Below, piece by piece: positions 56,321 through 63,928 of a stretch of 64,000 bases of DNA (the first letter of the stretch is position 1; every line of letters starts with the position of its first letter). This DNA comes from an uncultured Acidobacteriota bacterium (lineage in GTDB: Bacteria > Acidobacteriota > Terriglobia > UBA7540): contig CAWDSK010000005.1 of assembly GCA_963804995.1 (NCBI GenBank), positions 1-64,000 on the forward strand, in the 5' to 3' direction. The position numbers and the translations under genes are program-made. The notes under the pieces are model-generated. The model did not search any database. It saw only the letters and a program-made list of their open reading frames with translations, and was not told where the DNA came from.

Positions 56321-56439
56321 GTAGCGCGGTCCCCCGGTTTTGGGGGCCGCGGTTCTTGGTTTGAAAGGCTGGTTCTTCGCCACCCACCATTCGCTCCGAT
56401 GACATACGAAGAGCCGCAGACCTCAACGGCGGAGGTCTG
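56321..56439. repeat. REP pair whose type A REP is interrupted by the group II intron
   Basis: Type B at 56321-56351; CGCAGACCTCAACGGCGGAGGTCTG at 56415-56439 continues as CGCTAC at 58353-58358. Confidence 0.9.
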
Positions 56440-58352
56440 GTGCGCCGGGATAAACCGGCAGAAAGCAGAGAATGAAAATTTCTCACGAGGAAGGAGTAGC
56501 GATCCACTCGGCCCCGAGTTTTGCGCTGGGCGTCGTGAGGCGCACGGTGAAGCGTAAACAGGGGAATAGGTGGGCTGGGTATTGAGCTTCGAAAATGTCC
56601 AATCAGGACGCCGACGTTTTCAGACTAAACGGAAGGCAACATGAGGCCGGGACGCCAACGCGAGTTCCGGCACAGTCCTGCGTAGTCGTAGACCCCAGAC
56701 ACGCCTAGACACTTTCTGCACGAGAACCGGGAGACCTCGGAGGCGCCGGCCGCCGTAGATCGTGGCCGGACGGCGGGAAAAGGCGATGGCCGTACAGCCC
56801 GCCTGCACGCTTTCGAGGAGTCGGACAGCGGAACAGTACCGATGAATCATTTGAACAAAGACGGGAAGCCGTTGGCGGAGAATGAGGAGGGAAGGCCGCT
56901 GATCAAGGAGAACACCCGTTGGCCTAACACGCACCCGACACAGAGCGGGGCACGCGTGTCCCAGGGACTCGCGGGTGTGCGGAAAGCCGCGAAGGAACAC
57001 AGGGAGATGAAGTTCACGGCCTTGCTCCACCACTTAACGGTCGATCTGCTGCGGGAAAGCTTTTACGCCTTGAAGCGAAAAGCTGCACCGGGAGTAGACG
57101 GCATGACGTGGCAGGAGTATGAAAGCGGGCTGGAAGGTCGACTCGTCGATCTGCACAGCCGGGTCCACCGCGGAGCATTCCGAGCGAAGCCCTCGCGAAG
57201 GGCGTATATCCCGAAAGGCGACGGGCGGCAACGTCCGTTGGGGGTTGCGGCACTGGAGGACAAGATCGTCCAACAGGCCGTGGTCACCATCCTCAAGGCG
57301 ATTTACGAGGAAGACTTTCTGGGCTTCTCGTATGGCTTTCGACCGGGATGCAGCCAGCATCAAGCGCTGGACGCGCTCTCGTACGCGCTCACGGTGAAGC
57401 ACGTGAACTACGTTCTTGACGCGGACATTCGTGGATTTTTCGATTCGATATCCCACGAATGGATGCTCAAGTTCGTGCAGCATCGCGTCGCCGACCCCCG
57501 GATTCTCCGGCTCATCCAGAAATGGCTGAAAGCCGGGGTGAGGGAGGAAGGCGAATGGTCGGAGACGGAGATGGGTACGCCACAAGGGGCGGTGGTCTCG
57601 CCCCTGCTGGCGAATATCTATCTGCACTACGTCTTTGACCTGTGGGTGCAGGCGTGGCGCAAGAAGCACGCCCGGGGAGACGTGGTCGTGGTGCGGTATG
57701 CCGACGATACGGTCCTTGGATTCCAATCGCAGACGGAAGCCGACCGCTTTCTGGAGGATTTCCGGGAGCGGGTGGGGAAGTTTGGATTGGAACTGCATCC
57801 TGACAAAACGCGCCGGATCGAGTTCGGGCCGTTTGCCGAACTTTACCGGAAACGGAGAGGAGAAGGTAAGCCGGAGACGTTCGACTTTCTGGGCTTCACG
57901 CATATCAGCGGGAAGAACCGGAGGGGGCAATTTACCGTGAAGCGGAAGACGATCAGCAAGCGCCTGCGGGGGAAGTTGCAGGAACTCAAGCAACAACTCC
58001 GGCAGCGTCGGCACGATCCCATCGCGGATACGGGTAAATGGCTCCGGTCGGTCGTGCAAGGCTACTTCAACTATCACGCGGTACCGGGAAACCTCGACCG
58101 CCTGCGAATCTTTCGGGAACGGTTGACCCGACTGTGGCGAACACAACTGCGTCAACGCAGTCAACGCCACCGCCTCAACTGGGACCGACTGGGGAAGCTT
58201 GCGGCCTGCTGGTTGCCTGCTCCGCACGTTGTGCATCCTTGGCCATCCCAACGGTTCGCCGCCACACATCCGAGATAAGAGCCGTATGCGCTAACCAGCG
58301 CACGTACGGATCCGTGCGGGGGGTACCGGGTAACCGGTATCCCTACCGCAAC
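56440..58352 (+). mobile_element. Complete group II intron
   Basis: 5' GTGCG at 56440; domain V GAGCCGTATGCG...CGCACGTACGGATC at 58279-58312; domain VI hairpin and 3' AAC at 58352; removing it restores an intact REP. Confidence 0.93.
56842..58278 (+). CDS. ltrA: Group II intron reverse transcriptase/maturase without an endonuclease domain (start may be GTG 56956)
   Basis: APGVDG, RPLGVAALEDKIVQ, GTPQGAVVSPLLANIYL, YADD, FDFLGF and maturase GYFNYH motifs; no HNH domain. Confidence 0.95.
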   Translation: MNHLNKDGKPLAENEEGRPLIKENTRWPNTHPTQSGARVSQGLAGVRKAAKEHREMKFTALLHHLTVDLLRESFYALKRKAAPGVDGMTWQEYESGLEGRLVDLHSRVHRGAFRAKPSRRAYIPKGDGRQRPLGVAALEDKIVQQAVVTILKAIYEEDFLGFSYGFRPGCSQHQALDALSYALTVKHVNYVLDADIRGFFDSISHEWMLKFVQHRVADPRILRLIQKWLKAGVREEGEWSETEMGTPQGAVVSPLLANIYLHYVFDLWVQAWRKKHARGDVVVVRYADDTVLGFQSQTEADRFLEDFRERVGKFGLELHPDKTRRIEFGPFAELYRKRRGEGKPETFDFLGFTHISGKNRRGQFTVKRKTISKRLRGKLQELKQQLRQRRHDPIADTGKWLRSVVQGYFNYHAVPGNLDRLRIFRERLTRLWRTQLRQRSQRHRLNWDRLGKLAACWLPAPHVVHPWPSQRFAATHPR

Positions 58353-58400
58353 CGCTACGGTTCACTGGTGATACCTCCGCCACTGTTGTATTCTGGCCGC

Positions 58401-58922
58401 GTGTCACGGCTACGTCGGCTTTTTCTTTCTGATCGGTTCTTCTTCATCACGGTGCGCCTACTGGAGCGCCGCCGCAAATTAGATGATGCCGATTTCGAGC
58501 GTCTGGCACTGGCCATCTCCAGGAGCCGGAAGTCTCATCCCTTCTTCCTAACGGCCTGGGTGTTTCTTCCCAATCACTGGCATGCGATCTGTGCCCTACA
58601 ACATCCGGTGACTATTATTGAAGTCATGAAATCCATCAAAGTCAGCTCGACGACACTCATCAACGAGGGCCGCTCCCGGTCAGGTGGATTGTGGGTGGGC
58701 CGTTATTTTGACCGTGCCCTGCGAACTGTGAAGGAATACCACGAGAAGGTGGACTACATTCACAGGAATCCGGTAAAGGCAGGATTGGTCGGTCGGGCCG
58801 AGGAGTGGCGATGGTCCAGCGCGATCGAGTATTCCGGTGTGAGTGCGGCGGAACAAATGCTCCGCTGCGGGTTGACCATTGATCGGGTGAATCTCCCCTC
58901 GGATTTGAAAACGAGAATCTAG
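58401..58922 (+). CDS. REP-associated tyrosine transposase (RAYT/TnpA-REP, HUH Y1 family)
   Basis: FFITV, WVFLPNHWHAI (HUH), W...YFDRALR, YIHRNPVKAGLV...WRWSS; flanked by GTAG REPs. Confidence 0.88.
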   Translation: MSRLRRLFLSDRFFFITVRLLERRRKLDDADFERLALAISRSRKSHPFFLTAWVFLPNHWHAICALQHPVTIIEVMKSIKVSSTTLINEGRSRSGGLWVGRYFDRALRTVKEYHEKVDYIHRNPVKAGLVGRAEEWRWSSAIEYSGVSAAEQMLRCGLTIDRVNLPSDLKTRI

Positions 58923-58923
58923 C

Positions 58924-59551
58924 GTAGCGGCGTCCCCCTTATTGGGTCCGCGGTTCTTGGTTTGCAAAATTCGCAAAACCTCAACATACGGGTGGCTACG
59001 TTCGCTCAGAGGGAAGACGAAGAACCGCAGACCTCAACGGCGGAGGTCTGCGCTACGAGGTTTGCTCCCTCGGTATCGTTAGCATGAGGCGTAGCGCGGT
59101 CCCCCGGTTTTGGGGTCCGCGGTTCTTCATTTGCAAAATCCGCAAACCCCAACATGCGGGTGGCTGCATTCGCTCCGATGGCACACGAAGAGCCGCAGAC
59201 CTCAACGGCGGAGGTCTGCGCTACGAGGTTTGCAGCCTCTGCATCGTTAGCATGAAGCGTAGCGCGGTCCCCCGCTTTTGGGGTCCGCGGTTCTTGGTTT
59301 GAAAGGCTGGTTCTTCGCCACCCACCATTCGCTCCGATGACATACGAAGAGCCGCAGACCTCAACGGCGGAGGTCTGCGCTACGAGGTTTGCTCCCTCGG
59401 TATCGTTAGCATGAGGCGTAGCGCGGTCCCCCGCTTTTGGGGTCCGCAATTCTTCATTTGCAAAATCCGCAAACCCCAACATACGGGTGGCTGCATTCGC
59501 TCCGATGGCACATGAAGAGCCGCAGACCTCAACGGCGGAGGTCTGCGCTAC
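58924..59551. repeat. Array of four inverted REP pairs (REPIN/BIME-like, ~160-168-bp period)
   Basis: Type B GTAGCGCGGTCCCCC...GGGGTCCGC at 58924 (variant), 59091, 59259 and 59418; type A CGCAGACCTCAACGGCGGAGGTCTGCGCTAC at 59026, 59194, 59353 and 59521. Confidence 0.93.
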
Positions 59552-59557
59552 GGTTGC

Positions 59558-60220
59558 TTAATGCTTGGGGGCGGGGGAGACCCAGACTCTTCGCGCGGCG
59601 GATTCGCCCAGGTGGGTTGGCTTGTCGCCTATACGCAGGCTAATGGTCCCATCGTAATTGCGGCTCAGGACTTTCAGTTGCACGCCCGGCCGGATGCCCA
59701 GCCGATCGAAGTACTCCAAAAGCTCGCGATCACGCTCGTGCATGCTATCCACTTTGACGGGCGCGCCCGGGGGCGCTTCCCACAATTGTTGCAAGCCCAG
59801 GCGGCGGCGCTCACTGGCGCTCTTGTTGATTTGATTGCCGTGCGGGCAGGAGCCACCGGGGCCGAGTTTGTCGATCAGTCTTTGCTCTACGTCCGCGGAA
59901 ATAGCGTGCTCCAGGCGCTCCGCCTCGTCGTGGACCTTATACCACTCCATCCCCAGCAGTTCGTGGAGCATGCGCTCCACCAGGTGATGGCGCAGTTGCA
60001 GTTTTTCAGAGATGCTGCGCCCCGCCGCGGTCAGAGAGATGCGGCCTTTCTGATCAACTTTCACCAGATTATCGCGGCGCAGCCGGCGCAACGCCAGCGC
60101 CACCGCCGGAGCGCTTACCTCCAGCCAGCGGGCAATAGTGGCCGCAATGACGGCGCCCTCTTCGGCGTCAGCCTCCGCAATGGCCTTCAGGTAATCCTCT
60201 TTTGAAATCGTGAGCTTCAC
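59558..60220 (-). CDS. DtxR/MntR family metal-dependent repressor with a FeoA domain
   Basis: EDYLKAI, RHHLVER, VHDEAERLEHAIS, CPHGNQI, LGIRPG. Confidence 0.92.
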   Translation of the reverse strand: MKLTISKEDYLKAIAEADAEEGAVIAATIARWLEVSAPAVALALRRLRRDNLVKVDQKGRISLTAAGRSISEKLQLRHHLVERMLHELLGMEWYKVHDEAERLEHAISADVEQRLIDKLGPGGSCPHGNQINKSASERRRLGLQQLWEAPPGAPVKVDSMHERDRELLEYFDRLGIRPGVQLKVLSRNYDGTISLRIGDKPTHLGESAARRVWVSPAPKH

Positions 60221-60436: not shown

Positions 60437-63400
60437 GTGGGAGCGGATGGAATGATGGCCCGGATAGTGGTTCTCAGCCTTTTGATCATGAGCGTACAGG
60501 GTCTCTGCCCTTCGGTGAGCCGGGCGCAGGGGGAAACCACCAGCGCCATTGTCGGCCAAGTGACTGACGCTACCAACTCGTTCATTCCCGCTGCCACGGT
60601 GACGGTTACCAATCTCGAGACTGGTTTCGAGCGGCGCGCCCAGACGGACGGTGACGGCCGATTCAACTTTCCCCAACTCAAGCCCGGCTCCTACTCCGTC
60701 AAAGTTGAGGCGAAGGGGTTCGAACCCCAGCAAGTTGGCCCGGTGCTGGCGGGTTTGGGCCAGAAGCAGACCGTCACCTGTGTTCTTCAAGTGGCGCGGG
60801 CGCAACTGACGGTGGAAGTAAGCGCGGCCGCGGCCCTGATCAACCCGGAAAACGCCAATACCTCGACAACACTCAATGCCCCGGCGCTCGAAGACCTCCC
60901 CAATCCGGGTGGGGATTTGACCTACCCTTTGCAGTTTGCCACCGGCGCCCTGATCAACACGGCGGGCAGCGGCAATGATTTCGTGGGAGGGACGAACGGG
61001 TACGGCAACGTGGAATTCAACGGGCTGCCGGCGCTATCCAACGGTTACATCGTGGACGGCCTCGAAACCAACGATCCGCTCACCAACCTCAACAGCGGTC
61101 TTTCCACAAACCTGGTTCTGGGGCTCAATTCCATTTCGGAGGTTACGGTCAATACGCTTTCCTACGCCGTTGACGAAGGGCGCTATGGAGCGGCCCAGGT
61201 CAACTACGTGACCAAATCCGGCACCAACCACTTCCACGGTAATCTCTATGAGCTGTGGAATGGTTCCAAGCTCAACGCCGCCGATTTTTTCACCAACGCC
61301 ACGCCCGGAAATCACAAGCCCCGCTCGACGGTAAACCACTTCGGGGGCAGCCTGGGTGGGCCGATCGTGCGCGACAAGCTCTTTTTCTTCTTCGACAGCG
61401 AATGGGTTCGGATCGCGCTGCCCATCGTCACGCCCACGACCGTCCCCACGCAGGCCTTCCAACAATACGTTTTGCAACAACTCCCGCTGGGTGGCACTGA
61501 TGCCGTAACCGGATCAAGTTACCCGGGCGCTCCGCAACTGGTACCGTTTTATCAAAAGATGTTTTCCCTGTATGGAAATACCCGGGGCACGCCGCTCGCC
61601 GTCCTGGGATGTCCGTTTAATGCCGATGGCAGCCAGGCGCCGGGGAGTCCGGCGAACGGAAATGGTTGCGCCAACCGGCAAAGTGTTTCGCACTCCAGCG
61701 ACGACCACGAGCAGGTGCAGACGGTGCGCATCGACTACAACCGCAGCGAGCGGAATACGGCGTGGTTCCGTTTTCAGGCGGACACGGGTGTGCAAGCTGC
61801 CTACACCGACCCCATCAATCCCTTGTTTGACGCGTTCTCGCCCCAGCCGCTCTATTCCTTTGCCGCCGGGCATACCCACGTCTTTTCCCAGAATTTGGTG
61901 AACTACTTCAATCCCGCGTTTTCCTGGTACGGGAGTTTGTTCGCGCCCAGCGATTACGCAAAGACACTGGCGGCCTTTCCCATTGTCCTCCAAGGGATGG
62001 GCGCCAATGCCCCTTTCACCACGCTGGGAGGGCTTGACAATACCTGGCTCCAAGGCCGGCGCGCCTCCCGCTTCTTTATTAATGACAATCTCGCCTGGAG
62101 TCATGGGGCGCACGAATTCAGGTTCGGCACCAATACCCGGATTTTTCGCATGAATGATTACGATTTCGGCCAAGGTACGGTGCCTACGGTTGCTTACACC
62201 ACGCTGCCGCAATTCATCTACGGGGTGGCGTCCACCGCTACGGAAACTTTTCCCCTCGCGGCGAACCAGCCCTTCAACTTTCTTAACCTCGATTTGTATG
62301 CACAGGATACGTGGAAGGTGACTTCCCATTTCACCTGGACGTTCGGCATTCGCGACACGCTGAATACCAATCCCCTGAACCCGCATCGGAATATTGCGCG
62401 CCTGCGCGGATCGTTCCCAGCCATTCCCCATGATGTCAATCAACCCCTCGACGCCGCGATCGAAACTCATCTCGATCACCTGTTCGTTTCCACGCCGCTG
62501 GCAGTTCTGCAACCGCGCACCGCCATCGCGTGGCAGTTTGCACCGCATTCCGTGCTGCGCAGCGGTTTCGGGGTCTTCAGCGATATTTTGCCGGGCAGCG
62601 TGGCCGACAGCCTGGGCATGAATCCGCCCTATGTGCGGACCTTCCAGGGAGGATTGCTCGGAACCGTGGGCGGGAGGGGCATTGGGCCAGGTGTGCCGGG
62701 AAGCGCGGTTGACGCGACCGTGGCCGCAAACCAGTCCTTCAACTCTGGATTCGCGGGCGGCGAGCTTTCCTGCGCGTCTCCGCAGGCCAATCCTGGGACG
62801 TGCCTGGAGCCTGTGGCGATCAGCGCCGCCCCCGACGGCGAACTGCGCGCCCCGTACTTCCTGGAGTGGAGCTTCGGGATCGAGCACCAGTTGGGAAGCA
62901 CCGCCAGCCTGCACGCCCAATACGTGGGCACGCGCGCCATAAACCAGCCTTACTTCACGCAAGTGAACGGATATCAAACCGTCTGCCCGGGATGCTTCGC
63001 GCCCTTTCCCTACTTGCAACCTCAAGATCCGAGGTTCGGAGCGGTGACGCAGCTTTCTACGGGCGCGAACAGTCACTATCACGGACTACAACTGACCGGA
63101 ATGAAGCGCCTGGGACACGGCTTGCAGGGGCAAGTCAACTACACGCTCAGCCGCTGCGTGGACGAAGTTTCGAACGGCGGATTCCTGCAATTTTCCGCGG
63201 GTGGAATCCTCTCCCCCCTGCCGGGAGAGCTGGCGCGTGACCGTGGTCCTTGCGATTACGACATCCGGCACAACCTCAACGCACAGTACGTCTATAAACT
63301 GCCGATTAAAGTGAGAAGCCACCGCCTGGGCTATGCATTGAACGGCTGGCAGGTGTCGGGCACGGCGTTTTGGCATAGCGGGATTCCCTTTTCCGTCGTG

Positions 63401-63928
63401 AGCACGCCTTACTCGGCGAACGGAAACGGCATCGTGCAGGGCAGTGGACCACAATTCGCAAGTGTCGTCCCCGGTGCGCCCAGGTATGCGCGGAACCCCG
63501 TTGCGGGCGTGACGCAGCCGGGCACGATTCAGTGGCTAAACCCCAATGCGTTCGAGTCAAGCGTTGACCCGAGCACGGGGGCGTGCACGGGCGGTGACAG
63601 TTCTGCGGATTGCCAGTTTGGGACGCTGGGCCGCAATGCGTTGCGCGGTCCGGGGTTCGTCTGGAGTGATTTCTACCTCACGAAGTGGGTGCCCTTGACT
63701 GAGCACGTCAAGCTGCGCCTTGAAGGTCAATTCTTCAATGTGTTCAACCATCCGAATTTTGGACTTCCCAGCATTGTGCTGGGCGGCATTCCCGGAAAGC
63801 CATCCACCCAAACTGGATTTGGAGCGCTCACCTACACCACCTCACCACCCACGGGCTTGCTGGGGGTCGGATTGGGCGGCGACAACTCGCCTCGCATGAT
63901 TGCATTCCAGGCTCGCTTGGAGTTTTGA
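60437..63928 (+). CDS. Oar-like TonB-dependent receptor with an N-terminal carboxypeptidase-regulatory-like domain (start uncertain, perhaps ~60452)
   Basis: GQVTDAT...GRFNF, TKSGTNHFHG, LYAQDTWKV, FFNVFNHPNF, and C-terminal RLEF. Confidence 0.92.
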   Translation: MGADGMMARIVVLSLLIMSVQGLCPSVSRAQGETTSAIVGQVTDATNSFIPAATVTVTNLETGFERRAQTDGDGRFNFPQLKPGSYSVKVEAKGFEPQQVGPVLAGLGQKQTVTCVLQVARAQLTVEVSAAAALINPENANTSTTLNAPALEDLPNPGGDLTYPLQFATGALINTAGSGNDFVGGTNGYGNVEFNGLPALSNGYIVDGLETNDPLTNLNSGLSTNLVLGLNSISEVTVNTLSYAVDEGRYGAAQVNYVTKSGTNHFHGNLYELWNGSKLNAADFFTNATPGNHKPRSTVNHFGGSLGGPIVRDKLFFFFDSEWVRIALPIVTPTTVPTQAFQQYVLQQLPLGGTDAVTGSSYPGAPQLVPFYQKMFSLYGNTRGTPLAVLGCPFNADGSQAPGSPANGNGCANRQSVSHSSDDHEQVQTVRIDYNRSERNTAWFRFQADTGVQAAYTDPINPLFDAFSPQPLYSFAAGHTHVFSQNLVNYFNPAFSWYGSLFAPSDYAKTLAAFPIVLQGMGANAPFTTLGGLDNTWLQGRRASRFFINDNLAWSHGAHEFRFGTNTRIFRMNDYDFGQGTVPTVAYTTLPQFIYGVASTATETFPLAANQPFNFLNLDLYAQDTWKVTSHFTWTFGIRDTLNTNPLNPHRNIARLRGSFPAIPHDVNQPLDAAIETHLDHLFVSTPLAVLQPRTAIAWQFAPHSVLRSGFGVFSDILPGSVADSLGMNPPYVRTFQGGLLGTVGGRGIGPGVPGSAVDATVAANQSFNSGFAGGELSCASPQANPGTCLEPVAISAAPDGELRAPYFLEWSFGIEHQLGSTASLHAQYVGTRAINQPYFTQVNGYQTVCPGCFAPFPYLQPQDPRFGAVTQLSTGANSHYHGLQLTGMKRLGHGLQGQVNYTLSRCVDEVSNGGFLQFSAGGILSPLPGELARDRGPCDYDIRHNLNAQYVYKLPIKVRSHRLGYALNGWQVSGTAFWHSGIPFSVVSTPYSANGNGIVQGSGPQFASVVPGAPRYARNPVAGVTQPGTIQWLNPNAFESSVDPSTGACTGGDSSADCQFGTLGRNALRGPGFVWSDFYLTKWVPLTEHVKLRLEGQFFNVFNHPNFGLPSIVLGGIPGKPSTQTGFGALTYTTSPPTGLLGVGLGGDNSPRMIAFQARLEF

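Follow-up and report, generated by a model that had tools for sequence, protein, structure and literature searches.

Class E group II introns of bacteria, reportedly set out by Toro in 2002, are said to include S.me.I4 of Sinorhizobium meliloti and Cl.be.I2. Two class D introns of S. meliloti home to mobile elements, RmInt1 to ISRm2011-2 and RmInt2 to both inverted repeats of ISRm17 (PMC4075523, PMC5894124). Class IIC introns have as their targets attC sites or the positions that follow terminator stem-loops (PMC4424553, PMC7923331), and a 2015 review by Zimmerly & Semper (PMC4424553) sorts the targets of bacterial group II introns into three specificities: terminators, attC sites and unique homing sites. 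REPs (repetitive extragenic palindromic sequences) are known as targets of insertion sequences (IS) such as ISPpu9, ISPpu10, ISPa11, IS1397 and others, and in Pseudomonas putida KT2440 two of nine copies of a group II intron are REP-associated (Tobes & Pareja 2006, PMC1525189). Here we describe a group II intron that splits a REP beside the gene of a REP-associated tyrosine transposase (RAYT). It lies in a 64,000-nt stretch of DNA, called the window below, which belongs to contig CAWDSK010000005.1 (C5) of the assembly GCA_963804995.1 of an uncultured Acidobacteriota bacterium (7.55 Mb in 9 contigs). We consider it likely, with a probability of roughly 80%, that this is an active, recently expanded class E (IIE) intron lacking an endonuclease, which has the REP as its homing site and spreads by base-pair-guided retrohoming.

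A first-pass annotation had called a full intron at this place, and the call is borne out by the RF02005, RF00029 and TIGR04416 matches and by the intron ends (Table 1). The sequence starts with GTGCG and finishes in ...GCAAC, which fits the GUGYG...AY ends of mobile group II introns. The RF00029 match is slightly below the gathering score of 40, but it terminates precisely at 58352, the proposed 3' end. The open reading frame (ORF) within the intron encodes a reverse transcriptase (RT)/maturase in which no endonuclease (D/En) domain was detected, since RVT_1 is its sole Pfam match. Subtraction of this ORF (1437 nt) from the intron (1913 nt) leaves a ribozyme of 476 nt.

The intron interrupts the 10-bp stem of a type-A REP two base pairs in from its foot end, so that the hairpin is parted from its GTAG foot. 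The first-pass annotation had read this REP as split into ...GGTCTG^CGCTAC (the caret marks the insertion point) and as restored by removal of the intron; joining 56415-56439 to 58353-58358 indeed gives a 31-mer that is found intact at 59026, 59194, 59353 and 59521, all on the plus strand, with no other occurrence in the window. Folded as single-stranded DNA, the unsplit REP gives a stem of 10 bp closed by a 7-nt loop (-11.6 kcal/mol, z -3.5), and its minus strand, which bears the GTAGCG foot, forms a comparably stable hairpin (-12.3 kcal/mol).

Copies of the intron occur throughout the genome. BLAST located 38 full copies, among which one measures 1914 nt, and two more that are cut by contig starts, at identities of 99.7-100%, and the 478-aa RT ORF is uninterrupted in 38 of the 39 ORF-bearing copies. 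Such identity, together with the intact ORFs, argues for a recent expansion. All 38 readable 5' junctions have the form hairpin-...GTC(T/C)G^, and ^CGC(T/C)A follows the intron at all 39 3' junctions, where the 3' exon is CGCTAC in 24, CGCCAG in 13, CGCCAT in one and CGCCAA in one. Examination of the flanks of all genomic copies, which the first-pass annotation had proposed as a check, thus places every copy at ...GTC(T/C)G^CGC(T/C)A in a REP hairpin, and the proposed specialisation on a multicopy REP target holds for this lineage, in which all readable junctions fall in two REP families. These families have a common stem core, GCAGACC...GGTCTGC, and differ in loop and foot; the shared core would be what enables one intron to use both. 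Two A-type REP variants account for 84 and 118 exact unoccupied 12-mers in the genome.

Intron copies also stand at four contig ends (C2:6-649, C7:1-1904, C9:388252-390164 and C6:2170751-2172663), two of the full copies lying just 3 and 34 nt from the end. The intron probably breaks the assembly at such places, and the true copy number may therefore exceed 40. Neighbouring REPs both hold a copy in two places, at a spacing of 265 bp on C6 and of 70 bp on C7. A few single-nucleotide polymorphisms, each present in 7-25 copies, occur in varied combinations at window positions 56497, 56812, 57297, 57349, 58096 and 58143 (intron positions 58, 373, 858, 910, 1657 and 1704), a pattern that points to multiple source copies or to gene conversion between copies.

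A fundamental question is how the intron would find so precise a position within the REP. The first-pass annotation had proposed that a domain I loop, CAGACU, serves as exon-binding site 1 (EBS1) for the last six bases of the 5' exon, GGTCTG (intron-binding site 1, IBS1), and that G56688 serves as EBS3 for the C at exon position +1. The Rfam consensus structure and a free-energy RNA fold both place UCAGACU (56620-56626) in a terminal loop, so that neither displaces 56621-56626 from the EBS1 loop, and this loop is identical in all 37 copies compared. Relatives for a covariation analysis were drawn from 40 related genomes, from a collection of genomes of 185,579 species (the best 80 of 565 stretches) and from 15 extra regions; a script located 98 intron starts, 74 distinct introns had both junctions, and the sources named are nearly all Acidobacteriota/Terriglobia. 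Among 53 distinct combinations of loop and exon, EBS1 and the last six exon bases are paired at 6/6 positions in 39, at 5/6 in nine and at 4/6 in five, compared with 6/6 pairing in 4.4% of cases when exons were dealt to other introns. A blind scan of alignment columns against exon positions chose 56621-56624 for -1 to -4 and returned 56688 as the best column for +1, with 97% complementarity over six pair types. Standard pairs between EBS3 and +1 are present in 70 of 72 cases (57 G-C, 4 A-T, 5 T-A, 1 C-G and 3 wobble), so that all four Watson-Crick types are represented. This covariation across relatives shows EBS1 and EBS3 to be where the first-pass annotation had proposed them.

The closest lineage was found in a genome of the same genus, G005 (92% RT identity; clade support 99 in a quick tree with SH-aLRT, the Shimodaira-Hasegawa-like approximate likelihood ratio test, as its only support). 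There, EBS1 reads CGGACU instead of CAGACU, all six intron loci lie in REP hairpins of the form CGGACC...G(G/C/T)CCG^CGCT(A/G)(C/T), and the 57 unoccupied REP-like matches are mostly CGGACC...GGTCCG by reading of the list. An A-to-G change in EBS1 is thereby accompanied by a T-to-C change in the REP, the kind of co-variation across genomes that had been put forward as a check on the original idea. At five of these loci (L047, L058, L140, L141 and L032) the occupied REP has G or C rather than T at -4, so that an A bulges from the hairpin and EBS1 is mismatched at this base.

More distant lineages widen the range of targets. Introns at L062, L145, L148, L059 and L041 stand at the 3' end of CTGGCG- or GTAG-footed hairpins and have a matching EBS1; many other relatives occupy sites with no conserved hairpin, again with a matching EBS1 of 6-7 nt; and the proteobacterial relatives (58-61% identity) occupy unrelated sites, each fitting its own 6-nt EBS1. 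Homologues at non-REP sites, which the first-pass annotation had regarded as evidence against its proposal, do therefore exist in the more distant lineages, and the REP specialisation of the window lineage stands beside them: since the non-REP lineages have different, matching EBS1 sequences, their sites are better read as retargeting than as loss of REP specialisation. By the sequence comparison, the clade is predicted to retarget through change of EBS1, with the hairpin as no general requirement. A separate observation concerns the intron starts: L072, L143-L146 and L062 begin ...CTG^GAAAGCG or GTAAGCG, and L059, L148 and L041 begin ...CTG^GATAGCG, with no GTGCG at the aligned position. EBS1 pairing in these introns is consistent with a 5' splice site that lies 2 nt upstream of that position, and they may have shifted splice sites or be decayed copies.

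Since the genome holds hundreds of REPs, filled and empty sites can be compared directly. The catalogue of sites, defined as (A/G)GTC(T/C)G followed by CGC(T/C)A or by the intron, comprises 334 entries, 37 occupied and 297 empty. GTCTG-type sites are occupied in 33 cases and empty in 145, as compared with 4 occupied and 152 empty for GTCCG-type sites, which would present a C.A mismatch at -2 (Fisher p = 2e-6); in the permissive orientation only, the figures are 28/73 and 3/72 (p = 3e-7). At no fewer than 87 hairpin sites the opposite strand of the palindrome reads GGTCTG^CGG(T/C)TC, with IBS1 and the +1 C unchanged, yet none of the 39 3' junctions is of this form. That this strand is unused despite the same hairpin, IBS1 and +1 C indicates that a determinant beyond IBS1 and IBS3 is read, for which positions +3 and +5, or -9 to -12, are candidates.

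The permissive orientation is defined by replication. Of the 34 copies on contigs that could be assigned, 33 run with the G-rich strand, i.e., along the direction of fork movement. GTCTG-type REPs themselves are unbiased (73 co-oriented, 78 anti-oriented), whereas their occupancy is 28/73 in the co-oriented and 1/78 in the anti-oriented class (p = 1e-9). The polarity of the skew agrees with two landmarks: on C6 the minus strand carries the single 16S rRNA gene and all 15 copies of that contig, and around dnaA (C2:123925) the two copies to its left are minus and the three to its right plus. As the sense strand of the intron is the leading-strand sequence, entry would be into the lagging-strand template. 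The endonuclease-less RmInt1 has a lagging-strand bias of this kind (PMC4075523), and a genome survey found that strand biases vary by type of intron-encoded protein (Miura 2022, PMC8919778).

Could selection, rather than the mode of entry, produce such a bias? Only copies that are sense to the surrounding transcripts might be spliceable, and genes are commonly co-oriented with replication, so that copies in the other orientation would be lost. REPs are often located between the genes of a single transcript (PMC3733652), as this explanation would prefer. However, a bias of 33:1 exceeds what gene-strand bias normally gives, and several co-oriented copies, e.g., C6:913675 and C6:1536608, are flanked on both sides by nearest long ORFs of the opposite strand or lie between divergent ones, according to an ORF scan that is crude and unreliable at 58% G+C. 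We regard selection as an improbable source of the orientation bias.

The same data bear on whether the intron moves by itself at all. If the copies were passengers of RAYT-driven movement of REPs or of paired REP units (REPINs), or had been spread by recombination between REPs, no retrohoming would be needed; the REPs are indeed RAYT-associated, and three copies adjoin RAYT genes. Passive spread of this kind does not sit with one intron occupying two REP families that differ in RAYT clade and foot, with base-exact insertion that leaves the 31-mer restored on removal, with occupancy that tracks both the EBS1 match and replication orientation, with intact RT ORFs in 38 of 39 copies, or with covariation of EBS1 and target across lineages. 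We consider it very improbable.

To what class does the intron belong? Toro 2018 (PMC5894124) places on plasmid pRmeGR4b of S. meliloti GR4 S.me.I4, a class E intron that is disrupted, and one copy of the class D intron RmInt1; the window RT is 57% identical to the disrupted RT of this plasmid and 35% identical to the other. The disrupted pRmeGR4b intron, the window intron and its Pseudomonas and Ralstonia relatives match RF02005, whereas RmInt1 matches RF01999. The ribozyme of 476 nt is within the range of 450-700 nt given for IIE/IIF introns, and hydrolytic self-splicing in vitro is described for IIE (Nagy 2013, PMC3753933). An apparent EBS2-IBS2 pairing is a further class E trait. For IIC introns the description is of an IBS1 of 3-4 bp, no EBS2 and a stem-loop upstream of IBS1 (PMC7923331). 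The window intron has a different set of traits, as its IBS1 pairing is 6 bp, its IBS1 lies within the 3' arm of the hairpin and many of its relatives are hairpin-less. The RT aligns to solved IIC RTs in the RT domain only (137-140 bits, E ~1e-39), as compared with 404 bits to a 320-aa class E fragment, and RT matches in the Protein Data Bank (PDB) do not separate classes, with 137-144 bits for CL, IIC and ML alike. The first-pass annotation had judged the intron distinct from IIC, and its RT and ribozyme do group with class E.

Taken together, the retrohoming that we favor would proceed as follows. The intron RNA reads its target by pairing EBS1 with the end of the 3' arm of the REP and EBS3 with the next C. 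Either or both of two additional determinants could contribute, a short EBS2 on -9 to -12 and contacts of the protein with roughly +3 to +6. The ribonucleoprotein (RNP) would, in the manner of RmInt1, reverse-splice into the lagging-strand template and be primed at the replication fork, and sites of the other orientation would stay empty because entry is restricted to that template. Lineages of the clade would retarget by EBS1 change, the window lineage and its sister each having tracked the REP variant dominant in its own host.

Several observations weigh against this proposal. As many as 45 sites that match perfectly and have the permissive orientation stand empty, many of them identical to occupied ones and including the window's four, so that occupancy must be stochastic or additional factors matter. 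In G005, the non-T bases at -4 are found in five of six occupied REPs (four GGGCCG and one GGCCCG) as compared with roughly 8 of the 57 unoccupied matches, and simple EBS1 pairing does not predict these sites. The EBS2 signal is weak: a test for the longest helix anywhere gave 3.69 against 3.50 +/- 0.09 for shuffles, and a register-specific test of 56596-56599 against -9 to -12 reached z of 5-7 over shuffles, but with about 2.4 of 4 positions paired and with relatedness uncontrolled. Replichores were inferred from GC skew on a 9-contig assembly, and six copies, on C1 and C9, were left unassigned. The class E-like (IIE) rather than IIC label depends on a single literature-anchored reference and not on an all-class tree, and the 5-nt domain V loop that IIE/IIF introns have instead of the usual 4-nt loop (Nagy 2013, PMC3753933) was not found in the window intron, where ...GCGC-UAACCA-GCGC..., read by eye, gives a loop of 4 nt (AACC) or 6 nt (UAACCA) depending on the U-A pair. 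Logan contigs from public sequencing runs were fragmentary (best share of words 0.47) and bridged neither intron junction. Lastly, among co-oriented sites that share -6 to +6, those without a hairpin are occupied in 0/11 cases and those with one in 23/51 (p = 0.005), which leaves room for recognition of the hairpin itself. As to the public data, contigs that end at 56439 and run on into CGCTAC were set aside as probably other, empty REP copies, since they match only the last ~31 nt of the REP; metatranscriptome contigs are 90-95% like the intron and are uninformative on transcription in this genome.

The hairpin-less sites bring forward an alternative hypothesis, in which targeting is directed by structure as in IIC introns: the RNP would recognise the REP hairpin extruded as single-stranded DNA, and EBS1 pairing would set only the cut point. 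Besides the hairpin-less sites, it draws on the fact that all 38 readable sites are hairpins, that hairpin targets recur in the separate sublineages of L062, L145 and L059/L148, and that the two REP families in use share the stem yet differ in loop and foot. However, the 11 hairpin-less sites do not separate structure from sequence, because all REP bases upstream of -6 are also missing from them. IBS1 lies inside the 3' arm, so that a folded hairpin would hide it, whereas the IIC stem-loop is upstream of its short IBS1 (PMC7923331); the hairpin of the opposite strand is equally stable and never used; and many relatives home by way of a matching EBS1 of 6-7 nt with no conserved hairpin. We therefore judge targeting by structure to be unlikely, though less so than selection or passive spread.

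What role does the neighboring RAYT play? The first-pass annotation had placed a RAYT gene 48 bp past the intron, which agrees with the profile match and GTG start in Table 1, and REP feet and doublets flank this gene on both sides. The genome has 15 RAYT-like genes that match NF047646, 6 of them above the cut-off. The shorter RAYTs (C5:58407, C2:304797) lie among GTAGCG/CGCTAC feet and the longer ones (C6:722336, C3:777566, C2:467487) among CTGGCG/CGCCAG feet, so that the two REP families each go with a RAYT clade of their own. One of the 15 genes lies within 120 bp of just 3 of the 40 intron copies. Because RAYT genes are flanked by their own REPs, the adjacency in the window is incidental and does not point to functional coupling. 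Of the layered REP/RAYT/retroelement system that had been proposed, the REP specialisation is retained, and a functional RAYT layer is not borne out. When 9 RAYTs from the genome were compared by tblastn with all loci collected from relatives, the flanks being just 1.5 kb, no match at E <= 1e-4 appeared beside the introns.

Table 1 Features of the split REP, the intron and the adjoining RAYT, in window coordinates.
Feature	Position	Strand	Basis
Second-type REP: GTAGCG foot, then CGGTCCCC...GGGGGCCG hairpin; left half of the doublet whose right half holds the intron	56321..56352	+	Read from sequence, GTAGCG at 56321
Split type-A REP, 5' part (5' exon): 5' arm CGCAGACCTC, loop AACGGCG, 3' arm up to GAGGTCTG	56415..56439	+	31-mer restored with 58353-58358; hairpin fold
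IBS1 (GGTCTG), in 3' arm of REP stem	56434..56439	+	Pairs with CAGACU 56621-56626; covariation in relatives
Group II intron, complete, 1913 nt, GTGCG...AC ends, class E-like, endonuclease domain not detected	56440..58352	+	Rfam, profile and Pfam matches; copy comparison
Ribozyme domain I core	56475..56695	+	RF02005 (group-II-D1D4-6), 173 bits vs gathering score 49, model positions 1-225 of 225
Possible short EBS2 (UGUC), internal loop 5' of EBS1 hairpin, against exon -9 to -12; tentative	56596..56599	+	Register-specific complementarity
EBS1 stem-loop CGTTT-T-CAGACT-AAACG; EBS1, CAGACU at 56621-56626	56615..56631	+	Rfam consensus, RNA fold, covariation
EBS3 (G), pairs with C58353 at exon +1	56688	+	Covariation
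Intron-encoded RT/maturase, 478 aa, YADD motif	56842..58278	+	TIGR04416, 342.5 bits (cut-off 300)
Domains V and VI, including 3' splice site	58277..58352	+	RF00029 (DV-DVI), 39.2 bits, E 1.2e-6
Split REP, 3' part CGCTAC (complement of GTAGCG foot); C58353 = IBS3	58353..58358	+	Junction comparison
RAYT, GTG start	58401..58922	+	NF047646 REP_Tyr_transpos, 111.9 bits (cut-off 80); Pfam Y1_Tnp
Four tandem REP doublets 3' of the RAYT, each closing with an intact, unoccupied type-A 31-mer	58924..59551	+	31-mers at 59026, 59194, 59353, 59521

Beyond the REP array lie two ORFs, 59558-60220 (-) and 60437-63928 (+), which by eye resemble a metal regulator of the DtxR/MntR type and a large outer-membrane protein akin to TonB-dependent receptors. 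Elsewhere in Terriglobia, other lineages of the intron occupy a different repeated motif of ~28 nt, ...AAATCGCC-ATTACA^CTCAT..., with variants such as AATGCA and a matching EBS1 in each (5' exons of L065-L068, L079-L081, L092, L101-L112 and L118-L132). A second set of lineages is on the opposite strand of this motif, ...GGCGATGTTA^CGCCAAC..., again with a matching EBS1 in each (L093, L097, L100, L115, L121, L128, L131, L133, L134 and L138). An inverted partner of the motif is often 20-40 nt off, and the chromosome of Tunturiibacter psychrotolerans has 10 unoccupied copies as compared with 0 for a reversed-pattern control.

A broader and more doubtful hypothesis is that the Terriglobia class E clade is a hyperparasite of RAYT-associated palindromic repeats, with REPs partitioned by replication orientation between two mobile systems; we put it forward as a tentative possibility. 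EBS1 is in effect a copy of the 5' stem arm of the REP (CAGACU compared with CAGACC, and in G005 CGGACU compared with CGGACC), and by this likeness the intron RNA would displace the 5' arm on a hairpin extruded from the lagging-strand template. The strand used would be the complement of the one with the 5'-GTAG foot, insertion would disable the REP as a RAYT substrate by parting hairpin and foot, and EBS1 would co-evolve with the dominant REP variant of the host.

What would retrohoming into REPs add to the known repertoire? The REP would be a fourth kind of target beside homing sites, terminators and attC sites, one that is read by ordinary base pairing and yet is present in hundreds of copies. 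It is because the base-paired homing site is itself multicopy that a burst of ~40 near-identical copies, unusually large and recent, would be possible. The genome offers a natural experiment, as hundreds of near-identical sites, filled or empty and in both orientations, allow the effects of one IBS1 pair and of fork direction to be measured from the genome. REP/RAYT systems, often seen as domesticated or self-contained, may themselves be parasitised, and a compact endonuclease-less intron with a target motif of 12-13 nt might serve multi-site genome engineering in Acidobacteriota.

Among known systems, the REP-targeting IS and the P. putida KT2440 intron share with the present case the use of REPs as landing places by other mobile DNA. 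However, association of two of nine KT2440 copies differs from the 38 of 38 readable junctions found here, all at one base position and with a covarying RNA guide. No REP-specialised group II intron was found in the portions of the literature searched, where the KT2440 table entry (PMC1525189) is the sole link between group II introns and REPs. Class E introns such as S.me.I4 resemble the window intron in the RT (through the pRmeGR4b remnant), in RF02005, in having no detected endonuclease domain, in a small IIB-like ribozyme and in the use of EBS1 and EBS3. The window intron is set apart from them by a REP homing site in hundreds of copies, by some 40 copies of its own, by the missing 5-nt domain V loop and by the weak EBS2 signal. 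With IIC introns it shares the lack of an endonuclease, an intergenic, genome-repeated DNA hairpin as the landing place and the use of EBS3, but their IBS1 of 3-4 bp lies downstream of the stem whereas here 6 bp lie inside it, and relatives of the window intron need no hairpin. The resemblance to IIC would be one of landing place and not of mechanism.

As working analogues, RmInt1 on ISRm2011-2 and RmInt2 on the inverted repeats of ISRm17 come closest. These introns are likewise endonuclease-less and specialised on a multicopy mobile element, with a strong preference for the lagging-strand template; related lineages change target through the EBS, as in the window clade, and RmInt2 is placed on inverted-repeat ends. 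RmInt1 differs from the window intron in its class (D), in its RT (35% identity) and in its Rfam family (RF01999), and the target of RmInt1 and RmInt2 is an IS whereas that of the window intron is a 31-nt extragenic palindrome. Because the window intron uses only one strand of this palindrome, its orientation would not be hedged in the way described for RmInt2.

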